From Luteitalea sp. (GTDB lineage Bacteria; Acidobacteriota; Vicinamibacteria; Vicinamibacterales; CAVVIG01), in contig WHSN01000002.1 in assembly GCA_009380045.1 (NCBI GenBank), forward strand, positions 9,744 through 73,743: a stretch of 64,000 nucleotides of DNA. Reading direction: 5' to 3'. Positions 33,680 to 64,000 of this stretch are shown one piece after another. A program made the position numbers and the translations under genes. Within the stretch, counting starts at the first letter, position 1; every line of letters begins with the position of its first letter. Below the pieces are notes generated by a model. The model saw only the letters and a list, made by a program, of their open reading frames with translations, did not search any database and was not told where the DNA came from.

Positions 33680-33819
33680 TGCAGGGATGACAGGATGGCA
33701 GGATGGCAGTGATTGCAGGATGGACCGGATGGAAAGGATGGCAAGAAGGTCGGATGGCAAGAAGCTGTAGTTCTGCCATCCGGCCATCCTGCCATCCCGC
33801 CATCCTGCCAGCCTGCAAT
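33680..33819. repeat. intergenic inverted array of short tandem units (GGATGG(CA) x6-7 facing CCATCC x4)
   Basis: GGATGG occurs at 33693, 33701, 33718, 33727, 33736 and 33752. CCATCC occurs at 33776, 33784, 33792 and 33800. The outer GCAGG/CCTGC also pair. The element lies between the pckA stop and the gatB start. Confidence 0.9.
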
Positions 33820-41938: not shown

Positions 41939-42150
41939 CAGTTGGTCACTTGGTCATTGGTCACTTGGTCATTGGTCATGGGTCATTGAGTCATTTGGCC
42001 ATTGATCTGGTCATTTCCTTGTGGTCATTTCATGACCAAATCACCAGATGACCACATGTACCGTGTCATTTCATCGACAGATCACCAAATGACCCAATGA
42101 CCAACGACCCAATGACCAACGACCCAATGACCAACGACCAAAAGACCAAC
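41939..42150. repeat. intergenic inverted array of TTGGTCA-type units (left arm) and TGACCAA-type units (right arm), ~210 nt imperfect hairpin
   Basis: The left arm (41939-42030) contains TTGGTCACTTGGTCA x2-3 plus degenerate copies. The turn is TGGTCAT-TTC-ATGACCA at 42022-42038. The right arm contains GACCCAATGACCAAC x3 (42091-42135). The element lies between convergent genes. Confidence 0.9.
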
Positions 42151-52780: not shown

Positions 52781-52850
52781 TCGTTGGTCGTTGGTCGTTG
52801 GTCGTTGGTCGGTTGGTGTCGGCGTTGATGTCGGTCGTCCGTCGTTGGCC
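52781..52850. repeat. tandem heptamer array (TCGTTGG/TTGGTCG x4-5 plus degenerate copies), single arm
   Basis: CGTTGGT is repeated at 52782, 52789, 52796 and 52803. It then decays into GGTTGGTGTCGGCGTTGATGTCGGTCGTCCGTCGTTGG. It lies between convergent genes and shares the TTGGTC core with the arrays at 41939 and 62847. Confidence 0.85.
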
Positions 52851-60985: not shown

Positions 60986-61598
60986 AGCGATCGGAGAAAT
61001 CGCGGAATCCACGCCGACGACGGGCGGCGTCCGCCTGCGCATCGAGACCTCGCTGGCGCCGGAGCTGGCGCCGGGCGACAGCCTGGCCGTCAACGGCGTG
61101 TGCCTGACCGTGGTCCGGGCCGGCGCCGGCGACGTCGATGCGGAGGTCGGGCCCGAGACGCTGCGAGTGACCACGCTTGGCACGTTGGCGCGCCGGGCGC
61201 TCGTGAATCTCGAACGGCCGCTGCGGTCCGATGGCCGTTTCGGCGGGCACTTCGTGCAGGGGCATGTCGATGCCGTCGGCCTGGTCGAGGAGCTCCGGGC
61301 GGACGCGGAGTTTCATTGGCTGACGGTGCGCTTTCCGCCGCAGCTGGCGCCGTTCATCGTGCACAAGGGGTCGATTGCGGTCGACGGCATCAGCCTGACC
61401 GTGGCGCGCCTCGGGAGCGACTGTTTCGACGTGCAGGTGGTGCCGTTCACCATCGAGCGCACCAATCTGAAACGGGTGCAGGTCCGCGACCCTGTCAACC
61501 TGGAAGGCGACATGGTCGCGAAGTATGTCGTTCGCGCGACGGAACTCGCCGGCTTGTCGCGCAAGCCGGTTCGCGCTGAAGGGGCCGCCGACTCATGA
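60966..61598 (+). CDS. ribE: riboflavin synthase (alpha chain)
   Basis: MFTGLVEAIGEI...GDSLAVNGVCLTV...GGHFVQGHVD...GSIAVDGISLTV shows the duplicated lumazine-binding repeat. Confidence 0.9.
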   Translation: MFTGLVEAIGEIAESTPTTGGVRLRIETSLAPELAPGDSLAVNGVCLTVVRAGAGDVDAEVGPETLRVTTLGTLARRALVNLERPLRSDGRFGGHFVQGHVDAVGLVEELRADAEFHWLTVRFPPQLAPFIVHKGSIAVDGISLTVARLGSDCFDVQVVPFTIERTNLKRVQVRDPVNLEGDMVAKYVVRATELAGLSRKPVRAEGAADS

Positions 61599-62842
61599 CA
61601 AAAGGGATGACAATCGCCAAGGGCGCGCGGAAAGCGTCCGGTCCATTCGCCCGCATCGAAGACGCGGTTGACGCGTTTCGTGCCGGCCAGATGATCATCG
61701 TCGTCGACGATGAGGATCGCGAGAACGAGGGCGACCTGACGATCGCGGCGGAAAGGATTACGCCTGAAGCGATTAACTTCATGGCGCGGTTCGGCCGCGG
61801 CCTGATTTGCCTGTCGATGACGTCGGCGCGGCTCGACGAGCTCGAGATTCCGATGATGGTGGCGCAGAACACGTCGCGCTTCGAGACCGGCTTCTGTGTG
61901 TCGATCGAAGCGAAAGGCCGCACGACGACCGGGATCTCGGCGGCCGACCGGGCGGCGACGGTGCTCGCGGCGATCGATCCGGCCACCAGGCCGTCCGACC
62001 TGGCGCGCCCGGGCCATACGTTCCCGTTGCGATCGCGATCGGGCGGCGTCATCGAGAGGGCGGGACAGACCGAGGCGGCGATTGACCTCGCACGGATCGC
62101 CGGGCTGTATCCGGCCGGCGTGATCTGCGAGATCATGAACGAGGACGGGACCATGGCGCGGGTGCCCGAGCTGACGAAGTACGCCCGGAAACACCACCTG
62201 CTGATGATCACCATCAAGGACCTGATCAGGTATCGGATCCGCAATGAATCGCTGGTGAAGCGCGTCTCCTCGGCAAAGCTGCCGACCATTCATGGCGACT
62301 TCCACATCCACGTCTTCGTGAACCAGCTCGACAACACCGAGCATGTCGCGCTGGTGCGTGGCGACCTCACCGATGGCCGGGACGTGCTGGTCCGGGTGCA
62401 CTCGTCGTGTTTGACCGGCGATGTGCTGCACTCGATTCGGTGCGACTGCGGCTCGCAGCTGGATGCGGCGATGGCGCGCGTCGCGGCGGAAGGACGCGGC
62501 ATCGTTCTCTACCTGAATCAGGAGGGGCGCGGCATCGGCCTGGCGAACAAGATTCGGGCCTACGAGCTGCAGGATGAGGGGTTCGACACGGTCGAAGCGA
62601 ACGAGCGGCTTGGCTTCAAGGCCGACCAGCGCGACTACGGGATGGGCGTCCAGATTCTCCGCGAGCTCGGGGTCCGCTCAATGCGCTTGCTGAGCAACAA
62701 TCCGAGGAAGCTCGTGGGCATCGAAGGGTACGGTCTGTCGATCAGCGAATGGCTGCCGCTCGAGATTCCGGCGTCCGAGTCCACTCGGCGGTACCTGACG
62801 ACCAAGAAAGAGAAGCTGGGGCACAAGCTCACTTCTGTATAG
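61595..62842 (+). CDS. ribBA: bifunctional 3,4-dihydroxy-2-butanone-4-phosphate synthase / GTP cyclohydrolase II
   Basis: DHBP synthase blocks (VVDDEDRENEGDL, RPGHTFPL, RAGQTEAA). GCH II blocks (VRVHSSCLTGDVLHSIRCDCG, EGRGIGL..K). The ATGA start overlaps the ribE stop. Confidence 0.9.
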   Translation: MTKGMTIAKGARKASGPFARIEDAVDAFRAGQMIIVVDDEDRENEGDLTIAAERITPEAINFMARFGRGLICLSMTSARLDELEIPMMVAQNTSRFETGFCVSIEAKGRTTTGISAADRAATVLAAIDPATRPSDLARPGHTFPLRSRSGGVIERAGQTEAAIDLARIAGLYPAGVICEIMNEDGTMARVPELTKYARKHHLLMITIKDLIRYRIRNESLVKRVSSAKLPTIHGDFHIHVFVNQLDNTEHVALVRGDLTDGRDVLVRVHSSCLTGDVLHSIRCDCGSQLDAAMARVAAEGRGIVLYLNQEGRGIGLANKIRAYELQDEGFDTVEANERLGFKADQRDYGMGVQILRELGVRSMRLLSNNPRKLVGIEGYGLSISEWLPLEIPASESTRRYLTTKKEKLGHKLTSV

Positions 62843-62846
62843 AGAA

Positions 62847-63057
62847 TTTGGTCATCTGGTGATCTGGTCATCTGGTCAACGATTTGGTCATCTGGTCAAC
62901 GATTTGGTCATCTGGTCAATGATTTGGTCATCTGGTCGTCTGGTGATCTGATCAATGACTGGGTCTGATCGATGACCCAATGACCCAATGACCCAATGAC
63001 CCAATGACCCAATGACCCAATGACCTAATGACCAACGACCAATGACCAATGATTGAC
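62847..63057. repeat. intergenic inverted array: (GATTTGGTCATCTGGTCAAC)x4 left arm facing (ATGACCCA)x6-8 right arm
   Basis: 20-mers lie at 62861, 62881, 62901 and 62921. Perfect 8-mers ATGACCCA run from 62972 to 63019, followed by ATGACCTA, ATGACCAA and further degenerate copies. The arms are largely complementary (7 of 8 per unit). The element lies between the ribBA stop and the ffh start. Confidence 0.9.
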
Positions 63058-63140
63058 ACCCCGGAGCCCCTGCCATTACGATAACGGTTTGCGCTAGAGC
63101 ACGTTAGAGCCGCTCCGACGGTCCCCGTTTACATGATGCC

Positions 63141-64000
63141 ATGTTCGAGTCCCTGAGCACACGTCTGCAGGACGTCTTCAAGTCCCTGCGAGGTCAGGGG
63201 CGGTTGACGCCCGAGAACATCGAGGCGGCCCTGCGCGAAATCCGCCTGGCCCTGCTCGAGGCCGACGTCAACTTCAAGGTCGTCAAGGCGTTCATCGATC
63301 GGGTGCGGGACCGCGCGATGGAGCAGGACGTGCTCCAGAGCCTGTCGCCGTCGCAGCAGGTCGTCAGGATCGTCCGCGACGAGATGCTCGCGCTCTTCGG
63401 CGACGCCCAGGGCGGCCTGGCGGACACGACCAAACGGCCGCGCGTGATCCTGCTGCTCGGGCTGCAGGGCGCCGGCAAGACCACCACCGCGGGCAAGCTC
63501 GCGAAGTGGCTGGCGAAACAGGGCCGGCATCCGCTGCTGGTGTCGACCGACGTCAAGCGTCCGGCGGCGATCCAGCAGCTGAACCTCGTCGCGGAAAAGG
63601 CGGACGTGCGGGTGCACGATCCGGCCGGGCAGCTGGATCCGGTCGCGAGGGCGAAAGGCGCACTGCTCGAGGCGACGAACAAGGGATTCGACGTCGTGAT
63701 CGTCGACTCCGCCGGCCGTCTGCACATCGACGACGAGCTGATGACCGAGCTCGCGGCGATCAAGGCGGTGACCGATCCGAGCGACCTGCTGTATGTCGCG
63801 GATGCGATGACCGGGCAGGACGCAATCAAGAGCGCTGGCGAGTTCAATCGCCGCGTCGGCGTCACGGGCGTCGTGCTGACCAAGCTCGACGGCGACGCGC
63901 GCGGTGGCGCGGCGCTCTCGGTGGTGTCGGTCGTCGGCGTGCCGATCGCCTTCGCCGGCAGCGGCGAACGGCTCGAGGACCTCGAGCCGTTCCATCCCGA
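63141..64000 (+). CDS. ffh: signal recognition particle protein Ffh, N-terminal part; continues beyond the right window edge
   Basis: Not in the ORF track because it has no stop in the window. Manual translation from ATG 63141 gives MFESLSTRLQDVFKSLRGQGRLTPENIEAALREIRLALLEADVNFKVV...GLQGAGKTTTAGKLA...DSAGRLH...TKLDGDARGGAALS. Confidence 0.9.
   Translation, partial: MFESLSTRLQDVFKSLRGQGRLTPENIEAALREIRLALLEADVNFKVVKAFIDRVRDRAMEQDVLQSLSPSQQVVRIVRDEMLALFGDAQGGLADTTKRPRVILLLGLQGAGKTTTAGKLAKWLAKQGRHPLLVSTDVKRPAAIQQLNLVAEKADVRVHDPAGQLDPVARAKGALLEATNKGFDVVIVDSAGRLHIDDELMTELAAIKAVTDPSDLLYVADAMTGQDAIKSAGEFNRRVGVTGVVLTKLDGDARGGAALSVVSVVGVPIAFAGSGERLEDLEPFHP

Follow-up and report, generated by a model that had tools for sequence, protein, structure and literature searches.

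A Facing Pair of Tandem-Repeat Arms in the ribBA-ffh Spacer of a Luteitalea Genome and Its Possible Kinship With PF05635-Carrying Hairpin Arrays

The Array Between ribBA and ffh

The window analyzed here is a stretch of 64,000 nucleotides from a Luteitalea sp. contig, near the right end of which ribBA and ffh, both confirmed by Pfam, lie as co-directional neighbors on the + strand, as an earlier note on this DNA had stated. Most of the spacer between them (210 of 298 nt) is filled by an element at 62846-63052 that consists of two facing repeat arms, the left one built from TGGT(C/G)A and the right one from ATGACCCA-type units, on which the sequence itself, TRF and regular expressions agree. 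The features of the locus are as follows.

61595..62842, + strand: ribBA, DHBP synthase / GTP cyclohydrolase II (PF00926, E = 8e-85; PF00925, E = 8e-73), stop codon TAG at 62840-62842
62846..62955, + strand: left (5′) arm of the array, G/T-rich, with eight TGGTCA and two TGGTGA units
62861, 62881 and 62901, with a degenerate copy at 62921, + strand: 20-nt super-repeat of the left arm, GAT(T/C)TGGTCATCTGGTCAA(C/T), located by regular expression
62888..63076, − strand: spurious, repeat-generated ORF of 62 aa from the ORF list, with no Pfam match
62956..62971, no strand: hairpin turn of 16 nt (…AATGACTGGGTCTGATCG…) in the MFE structure
62972..63052, + strand: right (3′) arm of the array, A/C-rich, with six perfect copies of ATGACCCA (62972-63019) followed by ATGACCTA, ATGACCAA and CGACCAATGACCAATGA
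63053..63082, + strand: promoter-like site of ffh abutting the array, TTGACA (63053-63058), 18 nt, TACGAT (63077-63082), matching the consensus at 10 of 12 positions
63087..63100, + strand: conserved ffh leader block GTTTGCGCTAGAGC, outside the array, with (near-)invariant columns in an alignment of 18 relatives
63141..63998, + strand: 5′ part of ffh (SRP54), which extends past the window edge (SRP54, E = 1.5e-67; SRP54_N, E = 5.6e-23)

In the left arm TRF finds periods of 8 and 20 with scores of 142-151 (at period 20, 4.8 copies, 90% match and a score of 142), and in the right arm a period of 8 (10.5 copies, 93% match, score 127), and hence the array is not a simple palindromic duplication, as had been argued from the differing periodicities. 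The TRF copy numbers of the two arms are 14.8 and 10.5, that is, at least four tandem units in each. The six perfect octamers and three variants described for the right arm are recovered by both TRF and regular expression, while of the four 20-mer copies claimed for the left arm three are intact and the last has degenerated. The reverse complement of ATGACCCA is TGGGTCAT, which matches the (C/T)TGGTCAT units at seven of eight positions, so the pairing of units from opposite arms is as originally given. Keto skew is +0.28 in the left arm and −0.46 in the right, such that the G-rich strands face each other, and the G+C content of the array is 46% versus 66% for the genome. The earlier note was also right to dismiss the 62-aa ORF, and the array is indeed the largest of its kind within the window but not within the genome, where those at C82:12409-12711 and C63:38449-38721 are longer. 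The perfect ATGACCCA run is not mirrored by TGGGTCA units in the left arm, and the two arms therefore appear to have been homogenized independently. Recent slippage, as previously suggested, would be the simplest reading of the octamer run.

As RNA, the region 62835-63075 is predicted to fold with an energy of −90.6 kcal/mol (z = −4.06; none of 200 shuffles folds as well) into 75 pairs, 73 of them Watson-Crick and two G-U. The hairpin that had been postulated is thus real, but its length of about 90 bp was somewhat generous, because the 75 pairs are interrupted, the longest unbroken helix is 8 bp and the arms are identical at 72 of 103 positions. The genome encodes both RNase III (rnc) and Rho, and cleavage of this stem by RNase III is uncertain given that it is interrupted every 2-8 bp. 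When the arms are folded singly, the left reaches −28.3 kcal/mol and the right is unstructured (MFE 0.0), and the same asymmetry holds genome-wide, with −0.245 kcal/mol per nt for G/T-rich versus −0.088 for A/C-rich arms (p = 1e-17). An Rfam scan of the array gives nothing at the gathering threshold, only generic hairpin (miRNA precursor) matches of 18-23 bits against thresholds of 90-144, and a known RNA family was rejected on that basis.

The array begins 3 nt past the ribBA stop codon and ends at the −35 box of the ffh promoter, the TTGACA…TACGATAAG arrangement of which is kept upstream of ffh in an alignment of relatives across the order. The leader block at 63087-63100 is the right limit of the free spacer and matches no Rfam family. 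An intrinsic terminator was rejected, as there are no terminator-like sites in 62600-63300 and there is no U-tract. The 34 paired arrays of the genome are found in tandem, convergent and divergent spacers in 24, 4 and 6 cases, respectively, versus a baseline of 66, 17 and 17%, with gene contexts taken from a GC3-based gene caller rather than from curated annotation, and hence the flanking genes show baseline frequencies and no terminator-like bias in orientation. These results, together with the gap of only 6-50 nt that most relatives have at this site (see below), lend no support to the terminator or insulator role that had been implied. The arrays of this genome show no positional preference relative to promoters, and a reading of the −35-like TTGACC units as outward-facing promoters was dropped because it fits the TGGTCA core only and not the other cores.

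A Genome-Wide Family With Strict Polarity

The array is one member of a family spread over the genome of this soil acidobacterium, which contains about 127 intergenic arrays, 94 of them with a period of 7-8. The TGGTCR core is common to about 34 loci including the one between ribBA and ffh, where loci were counted only if they had at least 5 to 7 units; a loose scan gave many chance clusters of three units, and a reversed-pattern control for TGGTCR arrays gave approximately zero matches. Three further arrays detected by TRF lie within the window itself.

33680..33816, no strand: sister element between pckA and gatB, built on a second core family, CAGGATGG / CTGCCATC
41942..42150, no strand: sister element with a TGGTCA/TGACCA core and like polarity, between convergent genes
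52781..52848, no strand: one-armed array of TCGTTGG (a rotation of TTGGTCG), on the left edge of the spacer and 3 nt past a stop codon

The hairpin turn at 62956-62971 has no motif in common with that of the 41942-42150 element, the only member with which it was compared (by eye).

The polarity of the arms is very strict, with the G/T-rich arm 5′ and the A/C-rich arm 3′ in 49 of the 50 arrays of this genome that have an inverted partner, and in 59 paired arms versus one reversed among 117 loci of other genomes. The rule applies on both strands. Within spacers, the left edge is the place of G/T-rich arrays and the right edge that of A/C-rich ones (Fisher p = 2e-5). Avoidance of Rho was considered as the cause of the polarity and rejected, since 20 one-armed arrays in tandem spacers give a G/U-rich sense RNA and 25 an A/C-rich one; these arrays have no bias with respect to transcription, and it is their position in the spacer that matters instead. 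The genome holds at least four core families, and in one array pair (C23:1075-1289) the two arms carry different cores.

There is no sign that the array moved recently as a discrete unit. No near-identical copies of it were found, the best identity between loci being 77-88% and confined to the repeats, and inspection of the junctions that follow TAGAGAAT and precede TTGACACC revealed no direct repeat that could represent a target-site duplication, and recent MITE-like transposition was rejected on these grounds. A Y1/RAYT transposase (PF01797) has no match in the genome (90% complete), so that a REP/RAYT identity was rejected too, and reverse transcriptase (RVT_1, PF00078) has none in the draft assemblies of this genome (G000) and of G001, G008, G017 and G020, so that reverse-transcriptase-templated addition was rejected for these array-rich genomes.

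Association With PF05635 Genes

The family PF05635, the 23S rRNA intervening-sequence protein (S23p), an Avd-like four-helix bundle, is represented by exactly three genes in this genome and all three are located inside array palindromes, in the loop. Their arms consist of TGGTCGT (C74), GGATGGCA (C199) and GATTTCAG (C67). Among 824 small genes, three have inverted flanks that score at least 40 and two of these are PF05635 genes (C67 and C74); the third is an artefact of paralogous csp genes, and the PF05635 copy at C199 is not in the top list of scores. The protein encoded at C74 matches XCC0516, the PF05635 protein of Xanthomonas campestris (PDB 2GSC), with E = 4e-9. In related genera, approximately 18 of 28 PF05635 loci have inverted arms of 7-9-nt units that score above shuffles, and 24 of the 28 are flanked by an array on one side or both.

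The two features also go together at the level of genomes. Array density and PF05635 density are correlated in 12 sampled relatives (rho 0.96, p = 9e-7; Mann-Whitney p = 0.002), a correlation that is phylogenetically confounded in that four of the five PF05635-negative genomes are from other families of the order. In the 200 kb sampled per genome, strict arrays number 0, 0, 0, 0 and 0 in the five PF05635-free genomes versus 11, 3, 6, 2, 2, 1 and 1 in the seven positive ones, and G009, without PF05635, still has three matches to the TGGTCR pattern. The correlation fits equally well with arrays that depend on the gene and with a gene that settles in arrays. A strict match between protein subfamily and repeat unit was rejected, as their covariation is weak (Mantel r = 0.185, p = 0.036) and there are clear counter-examples; one subfamily, flanked by TGGTCA arms in G017 and G008, comes with CAGGAT arms in the present genome.

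Neither a PF05635 gene nor a remnant of one is present at the ribBA-ffh array, where the loop is 16 nt and the sole ORF is spurious. Hence the link of this locus to PF05635 consists of family resemblance and the genome-level correlation, rather than descent at the site.

The Same Spacers in Relatives

The earlier note had suggested searching relatives for the same core at orthologous and other sites, and both are found, the former in the ribBA-ffh spacer of the non-sister genome G020 and the latter in the TGGTCA-armed PF05635 genes of G017, G008 and G003. Arrays of other cores occupy the ribBA-ffh spacer in G024, G018 and G029. The site is free of arrays in about 20 of 27 relatives, and the distance from the ribBA stop codon to the ffh −35 box is 6-50 nt in most relatives and 6-30 nt in several. 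The pckA-gatB spacer is similar in that its orthologs carry arrays of other cores, and in G006 it contains a small hairpin (GGGGATG…CATCCC) that resembles the unit of the present genome. A search of metagenome contigs with the exact flanks of the array returned no match, and of the sequencing runs searched for its source none holds more than 8% of the sampled words.

Discussion

What goes beyond the earlier reading of this locus is the genome-wide family, the strict polarity of the arms and the tie to PF05635 genes. We propose that the array at 62846-63052 is a cargo-less, stem-only form of a hairpin-array element whose full-length versions carry a PF05635 gene in the loop, a reading to which we give an even chance of being correct, and that it is probably a tolerated insert, selfish or neutral, rather than a purpose-built switch. 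In this scheme the element, or a seed of it, would have entered the short spacer between the ribBA stop codon and the ffh −35 box, a spacer in which arrays of other cores seem to have settled more than once in other genera. The arms would then have grown and become homogenized, each on its own, by replication slippage, leading to the six perfect ATGACCCA units in one and the 20-mer super-repeat in the other, and the array would have gone on spreading as far as the stop codon to its left and the promoter to its right. The array is presumably transcribed as the ribBA 3′ UTR, in which case the G/U-rich arm would emerge first and fold on itself, and the C/A-rich arm, which is unstructured alone and resembles a Rho loading site, would emerge second and be captured into the long interrupted hairpin. 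We suggest that this capture would make the insert largely harmless. By analogy with rRNA intervening sequences, side effects such as protection of the RNA 3′ end or processing by RNase III are conceivable.

The array fits exactly into the gap from a stop codon to a conserved promoter and has a strong predicted fold (z = −4.06), the host encodes RNase III, and in Xanthomonas such arrays are transcribed and concentrated no more than 50 bp from stop codons (PMC4692102), all of which would suit a dedicated RNA element, be it a terminator, an insulator or a REP/BIME-like, mRNA-stabilizing 3′ structure, that separates ribBA from an independently promoted ffh. Nevertheless, we regard such a role as unlikely, because there is no U-tract, the helices do not exceed 8 bp, paired arrays are as frequent in divergent spacers as the baseline predicts (6 of 34), some 20 of the 27 relatives manage without an array, several of them with only 6-30 nt from stop codon to −35 box, and the arms evolve independently rather than compensating each other. 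That the units are instead DNA or RNA sites for the PF05635 pentamer or another host factor, with gene-less arrays as selected regulatory or sponge sites, is a possibility we consider distinctly unlikely. The core families are genome-specific and co-occur with PF05635, arm unit and protein covary weakly, Avd relatives bind nucleic acid and reverse transcriptase (PMC10053308), and XCC0516 is described, in the part of PMC4990558 that cites Lin (2006), as a toroidal pentamer. However, one protein subfamily carries different arms in different genomes, three genes here face at least four core families, and the arrays do not favor any position relative to promoters.

Slippage typically leaves features such as the perfect octamer run and the arm-specific super-periods, and the lack of both identical copies and a transposase, the small pckA-gatB hairpin of G006 and the excess of heptamers among prokaryotic simple-sequence repeats, as cited in PMC4692102, would all be in keeping with a plain repeat that expanded locally from chance seeds or ordinary hairpin stems and took its inverted layout from a prior small palindrome, with no link to any gene or element. 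This would not lead one to expect a TGGTCR core shared by about 34 loci here and by several other genera when the reversed pattern has next to no matches, the 49:1 and 59:1 polarities, the position of all three PF05635 genes inside arrays or the absence of arrays from PF05635-free relatives, and so we judge it quite improbable. The polarity, the dispersed shared core, the individual structure of each array and the mixed-core pair (C23:1075-1289) would all be explained if a telomerase-like or reverse-transcriptase activity with an Avd-like cofactor added G/T-rich units to both 3′ ends of a break and the ends were then joined into convergent arrays, and PF05635 is homologous to Avd, the cofactor of the DGR reverse transcriptase (PMC10053308). 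Templated addition of this kind is nonetheless very improbable, since RVT_1 was not found in the five genomes with the most TGGTCA arrays (G000, G001, G008, G017 and G020), no template RNA came to light and several cores coexist per genome. Least probable of all is that the length or arrangement of the array is an artefact of short-read assembly. While sister arrays do occur at contig ends (C2:1-105, C53:1-88, C64:1-50, C126 and C94), each arm here is shorter than a typical read pair, the element lies within a 77.6-kb contig between unique flanks, and long-contig MAGs of other genera show a like architecture.

The reading of the array as a stem-only element can be extended, although we consider the extension tentative and rather doubtful. 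PF05635 genes and convergent arrays of 7-8-nt units may form one self-propagating system that repeatedly colonizes the same transcribed spacers, with the gene-carrying palindromes as autonomous members and the gene-less arrays as their dependants (approximately 25-30:1 for the TGGTCR core), and with a mode of synthesis that fixes the G/T-5′, A/C-3′ polarity. To our knowledge, few unexplained features of bacterial intergenic DNA are as abundant as tandem repeats of 7-8 nt, and we know of no stand-alone function for the large family PF05635 (IVS protein, Avd-like). The findings in one bacterial order now link this repeat class to a PF05635 gene and turn a descriptive curiosity into testable hypotheses, namely binding or processing of arrays by the protein, decay of arrays upon loss of the gene and cutting by RNase III. 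If a single self-propagating system does exist, it would account for the arrays seen in Xanthomonas and Nostoc, for the way in which ORF-bearing rRNA intervening sequences arose and for the long-noted excess of heptamers and octamers between bacterial genes. On the practical side, such arrays break short-read assemblies and create spurious ORFs.

Comparison With Known Systems

Several described systems share features with the ribBA-ffh array. REP/BIME and REPIN sequences with their RAYT (PMC3116915) are likewise dispersed, intergenic, palindromic repeats that are often found in 3′ UTRs, are tolerated by the host and have side effects on mRNA stability, whereas the arms of the present arrays are tandem micro-repeats without a conserved palindrome unit of ~35 nt, and neither near-identical copies nor a Y1/RAYT gene accompany them. 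Long simple-sequence repeats and STRR heptamers (cited in PMC4692102; TAACTGA, PMC4679880) have in common with them the 7-8-nt units, the intergenic location, the lineage-specific cores and a fast change in copy number. They differ in that they are described as direct arrays, and obligatory convergent pairing, polarity and a PF05635 association are not covered by these descriptions.

The closer precedent is in Xanthomonas, and the earlier note's reservation that the array might correspond to an already described repeat family is in part justified by it. As reported by Rehm et al. (2015; PMC4692102), X. campestris and X. citri have 70-75 convergent inverted heptamer array pairs (GGGAATC) per genome, which are intergenic and transcribed; their G-rich strand is the sense strand where they directly follow a stop codon and the antisense strand where they directly precede an ORF. 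Tandem 7-8-nt units, convergent pairs on opposite strands, an intergenic location and a rule of edge and polarity are shared with the arrays described here, and the host also encodes a PF05635 protein (XCC0516; PMC4990558). On the other hand, the TGGTCAYN unit has no G-tract (no run of three G), and hence the G-quadruplex reading of PMC4692102 cannot apply to it, octamers dominate in this genome, the under-representation between divergent genes seen in Xanthomonas is not found here, and PMC4692102 draws no link to PF05635.

The ORF-bearing intervening sequences of 23S rRNA in Coxiella burnetii and Leptospira (Warrier et al., 2016; PMC4990558) differ from the ribBA-ffh array in carrying an ORF in the loop, in their location in helix 25 or 45 of 23S rRNA rather than in an mRNA spacer, and in a near-perfect stem of 28 bp in place of approximately 75 interrupted pairs made of repeats only. 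The C. burnetii sequence consists of an S23p ORF in this 28-bp stem, with strain-variable tandem heptamers in its 5′ part, and RNase III cleaves it (PMC4990558). Common ground lies in the inverted terminal repeats that pair into a stem, the short tandem repeats and, presumably, transcription within a host RNA, and the sister loci C74, C67 and C199, each a stem around a PF05635 ORF, have exactly that build.

Anatomy of the ribBA-ffh Array

The spacer between ribBA and ffh holds a two-armed inverted repeat array, as the earlier note had claimed and as the sequence, TRF, and Pfam matches to both flanking genes confirm. This 298-nt spacer contains a left arm, a 16-nt turn, and a right arm. The window corresponds to C226:9744-73743 of the source assembly.

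Table. Features in the window (window positions)
End at 62842: ribBA (identity by Pfam)
62846-62955: left arm, 8 TGGTCA and 2 TGGTGA units
62972-63052: right arm, ATGACCCA in six perfect copies, then ATGACCTA, ATGACCAA, CGACCAATGACCAATGA
63053-63082: ffh promoter-like site TTGACA-18-TACGAT, beginning one base past the end of the right arm
Start at 63141: ffh (identity by Pfam)
33680-33816; 41942-42150; 52781-52848: further members of the array family

Most of the left arm consists of a 20-mer, GAT(T/C)TGGTCATCTGGTCAA(C/T), which occurs in three clean copies plus a degenerate fourth. The element has a G+C content of 46%, compared with 66% for the source assembly (a 4.3-Mb draft in 251 contigs), and it matches no Rfam family. 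As RNA it folds at about −90 kcal/mol on either strand (z = −4.06), a stability reached by none of 200 shuffled sequences. The hairpin potential proposed previously stands, with 75 pairs instead of about 90 bp, but no helix exceeds 8 bp because the arms, which are identical at 72 of 103 positions, differ in period and unit variants. The 62-aa ORF that had been called spurious has no Pfam match.

Alignment of relatives shows that the ffh promoter-like site and the downstream leader GTTTGCGCTAGAGC are conserved 5′ of ffh throughout the order. The whole region from 63053 to 63140 is unusually conserved (TTGACA-N17/18-TACGATAAG, then GTTTGCGCTAGAGC…TTAGCG, then ATG); it has no matching Rfam family and may be a conserved leader or an autoregulatory element.

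The Array Family and Its Polarity

TRF analysis of the whole genome gave 127 intergenic arrays, 94 of them with a period of 7 or 8. The most common core is GGTCAT/TGGTCA/TGGTCG (~44-56 arrays), followed by CAGGAT (~21, as CAGGATGG or CAGGATTT), while GGGAAT and other cores are rarer. At a threshold of at least 5-7 units there are ~34 TGGTCR loci, 22 of them two-armed, and an array usually extends from 0-15 nt from one flanking gene up to 0-15 nt from the other. No two loci are near-identical: the top inter-locus identity is 77-88%, in the repeats only, and the best match to the ribBA-ffh element (contig C2, 4-212) is 77% identical. Several contigs terminate in 7-8-nt arrays (C2:1-105, C53:1-88, C64:1-50, C126:14672-14719, C94:8222-8404), and hence the arrays break the short-read assembly, and their number and length are probably underestimated. 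Higher-order structure on the same core is seen at C64:2744-3446, where a composite repeat with a 45-nt period (TTGGGCCGAACCAACGAC plus TGGTCATGGGTCA…) has a tandem duplicate (92% identical over 263 bp) and is interspersed with TTGGTCA and ACGACCA arrays. The palindromes at C23:1075-1289 and C67:1100-1861 have unlike cores, ATTTCAGG on the left and ATGACCC/CCAGATGACC on the right, and on C67 a 14-copy CAAGTCGC array is inserted beside the ATCCTGAA arm; such arrangements suggest that arrays nest within or replace one another.

The G/T-rich arm lies to the left of the A/C-rich arm in 49 of the 50 arrays of the source genome that have an inverted partner. The structure being a palindrome, this polarity is the same on both strands, and the reverse arrangement, with the A/C-rich arm on the left, is a distinct object that is essentially absent. 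Among 117 loci fetched from other genomes by the pattern (TGGTCATY)x3.75, paired arms are in the G/T-left order 59 times and reversed once. One-armed arrays are G/T-rich at the left edge of the spacer and A/C-rich at the right edge (Fisher p = 2e-5) with no preference for transcription direction, so the polarity is a property of the architecture and not of which gene is read. The G/U-rich arm of the ribBA-ffh element folds on itself as RNA (−28.3 kcal/mol) whereas the A/C-rich arm is unstructured (0.0), and genome-wide the values are −0.245 versus −0.088 kcal/mol per nt (p = 1e-17).

Association With PF05635 Proteins

Three wide-spaced array pairs (C67:1100-1861, C74:16448-16983, and C199:25297-25923) each have a small ORF in the loop that encodes a protein of PF05635, the 23S rRNA-intervening sequence (IVS) family (E = 1e-9 to 3e-22), and by whole-genome search these are the only three PF05635 genes in the genome. 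In an inverted-flank control just 3 of 824 small genes scored at least 40. Two are the PF05635 genes of C67 and C74, and the third, the only false positive, is a HAD-type hydrolase gene (C183:23068-24270) between two inverted cold-shock-protein paralogues.

PF05635 is found in 30 of 41 relatives, with 28 loci assessable (about one per genus). Inverted arms of 7-9-nt units exceed shuffle scores at ~18 of these, the left arm being G/T-rich in 16 of the 18, and 24 of the 28 are flanked by an array on one or both sides. PF05635 genes with TGGTCA arms occur in G017, G008, and G003. The G003 copy (C15:32420-33210), flanked by TGGTCATC arms, is split over two frames by an apparent frameshift and may be cargo decaying toward a gene-less palindrome. 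The ORFs of G017 (C11:125200-126000) and G008 (C28:15380-16080) terminate within the right-arm array (…NDQMTK*), their final codons and stop coming from the repeat unit ATGACCAAATGA.

Twelve relatives were sampled at 200 kb each for low-G+C arrays with a period of 7 or 8. The counts were 0, 0, 0, 0, and 0 in five PF05635-free genomes, four of them from other families of the order, versus 11, 3, 6, 2, 2, 1, and 1 in seven PF05635-positive ones (Mann-Whitney p = 0.002). Array density and PF05635 density are correlated, with no direction of dependence implied (Spearman rho 0.96, p = 9e-7; 0.91 with a looser array count). G009 lacks PF05635 yet has three TGGTCR pattern matches.

Recurrent Occupation of the Same Spacers

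In most relatives only 6-50 nt separate the ribBA stop from the ffh −35 box, and some have arrays there or between pckA and gatB.

Table. Arrays in two spacers of the source genome (G000) and relatives
3′ of ribBA, G000: TGGTCATC
3′ of ribBA, G020: shorter TGGTCA/TGACCA palindrome, running over the −35 position
3′ of ribBA, G024: GAGTTGGT / CAAATCAC
3′ of ribBA, G018: CTTGGTGA / CAACTCGC
3′ of ribBA, G029: GTAAGAA
3′ of ribBA, G014: GGAGTCA, weak traces
pckA-gatB, G000: CAGGATGG
pckA-gatB, G024 and G002: TTGGTGAG
pckA-gatB, G020: GGAGGCT
pckA-gatB, G005: CTGGTGA, one arm
pckA-gatB, G006: small hairpin
pckA-gatB, G014 and G009: no array

The Ffh tree, a single-gene tree of modest resolution, places G000 with G014 and G009 and G020 with G012 and G006, and thus their two TGGTCA arrays are probably independent gains. 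The two comparisons together indicate that the same spacers are occupied recurrently, each time by a core belonging to the host in question. Either such spacers are favored as targets, or existing arrays are overwritten.

Proposed Origin and Alternatives

Weighing the directly observed anatomy, family, polarity, and PF05635 association, we propose, at even confidence for the reading as a whole, that the element is an IVS-like hairpin cassette in stem-only form, expanded by slippage and benign in the transcript. Slippage inside each arm would have given rise to both the 20-mer super-repeat and the run of perfect octamers, with growth halted by the stop codon at one end and the promoter at the opposite end. 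During transcription of ribBA, the G/U-rich arm, which folds on itself, would be synthesized first. The C-rich, G-poor, unstructured arm, potentially a good Rho loading site if exposed, would come second and be paired at once, making the insert benign whichever way it is transcribed. The genome has rho genes, and two full-scoring Rho RNA-binding domains (C66:46720-46941 and C230:15661-15882) suggest two paralogues. It also has a gene for RNase III, which cleaves the homologous IVS stems in rRNA (PMC4990558) and may process the ribBA-ffh hairpin, although this is uncertain given the interrupted helix.

The alternatives are taken here in order of decreasing probability. A dedicated terminator or stabilizer is unlikely, as no U-tract is found at the element and the paired arrays lie between tandem, convergent, and divergent genes in the ratio 24/4/6, like the baseline of 66/17/17% (GC3-based gene calls), which argues against a terminator-type function. 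That the arrays are protein-binding sites is quite unlikely, since the PF05635 subfamily with TGGTCA arms in G017 and G008 has CAGGAT arms in the source genome. Protein distance and arm-unit distance show only weak covariation (Mantel r = 0.185, p = 0.036, n = 18). Slippage alone would account for the array improbably, as it predicts neither preferred target spacers nor the rewriting of old arrays. Templated addition is very improbable, as no reverse transcriptase was found in any of the five genomes where TGGTCA arrays are most abundant; Y1/RAYT transposases were likewise not found in the source genome. That the array is an artefact of assembly is hardly credible.

Comparison With Known Systems

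The ribBA-ffh array is individually an ordinary family member, and the interest lies at the family level, in the polarity, the genome-scale co-occurrence with PF05635, the recurrent spacer occupation, and the octamer in other phyla. Identical (TGGTCATY)n arrays, often in several copies, occur in Bacteroidota, Chloroflexota, Cyanobacteria, and Proteobacteria; the hosts include Prevotella and other Bacteroidales, Mucilaginibacter, Chitinophagaceae, Chloroflexia, Phormidium, Vibrio, Pseudomonas, Psychrobacter, Acinetobacter, and Nocardioides (fetched loci L087, L094, L096, L103, L110-L113, L116, L124, L129, L141, and L159), through either chance, convergence, or transfer.

The literature searched holds no connection of gene-less arrays with PF05635. 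The nearest published descriptions are the convergent GGGAATC arrays of Xanthomonas and the Coxiella 23S rRNA intervening sequence with its ORF. The former (70-75 convergent pairs) are G-rich on the sense strand right after stops, or antisense just 5′ of ORFs (PMC4692102), and hence share the architecture, edge rule, and polarity of the arrays described here, but they were read as G-quadruplexes, which is inapplicable to TGGTCA units. The protein encoded in the C74 loop matches the PF05635 protein XCC0516 of X. campestris (PDB 2GSC; E = 4e-9), and the Coxiella sequence combines a PF05635 ORF with a stem and variable heptamers (PMC4990558).
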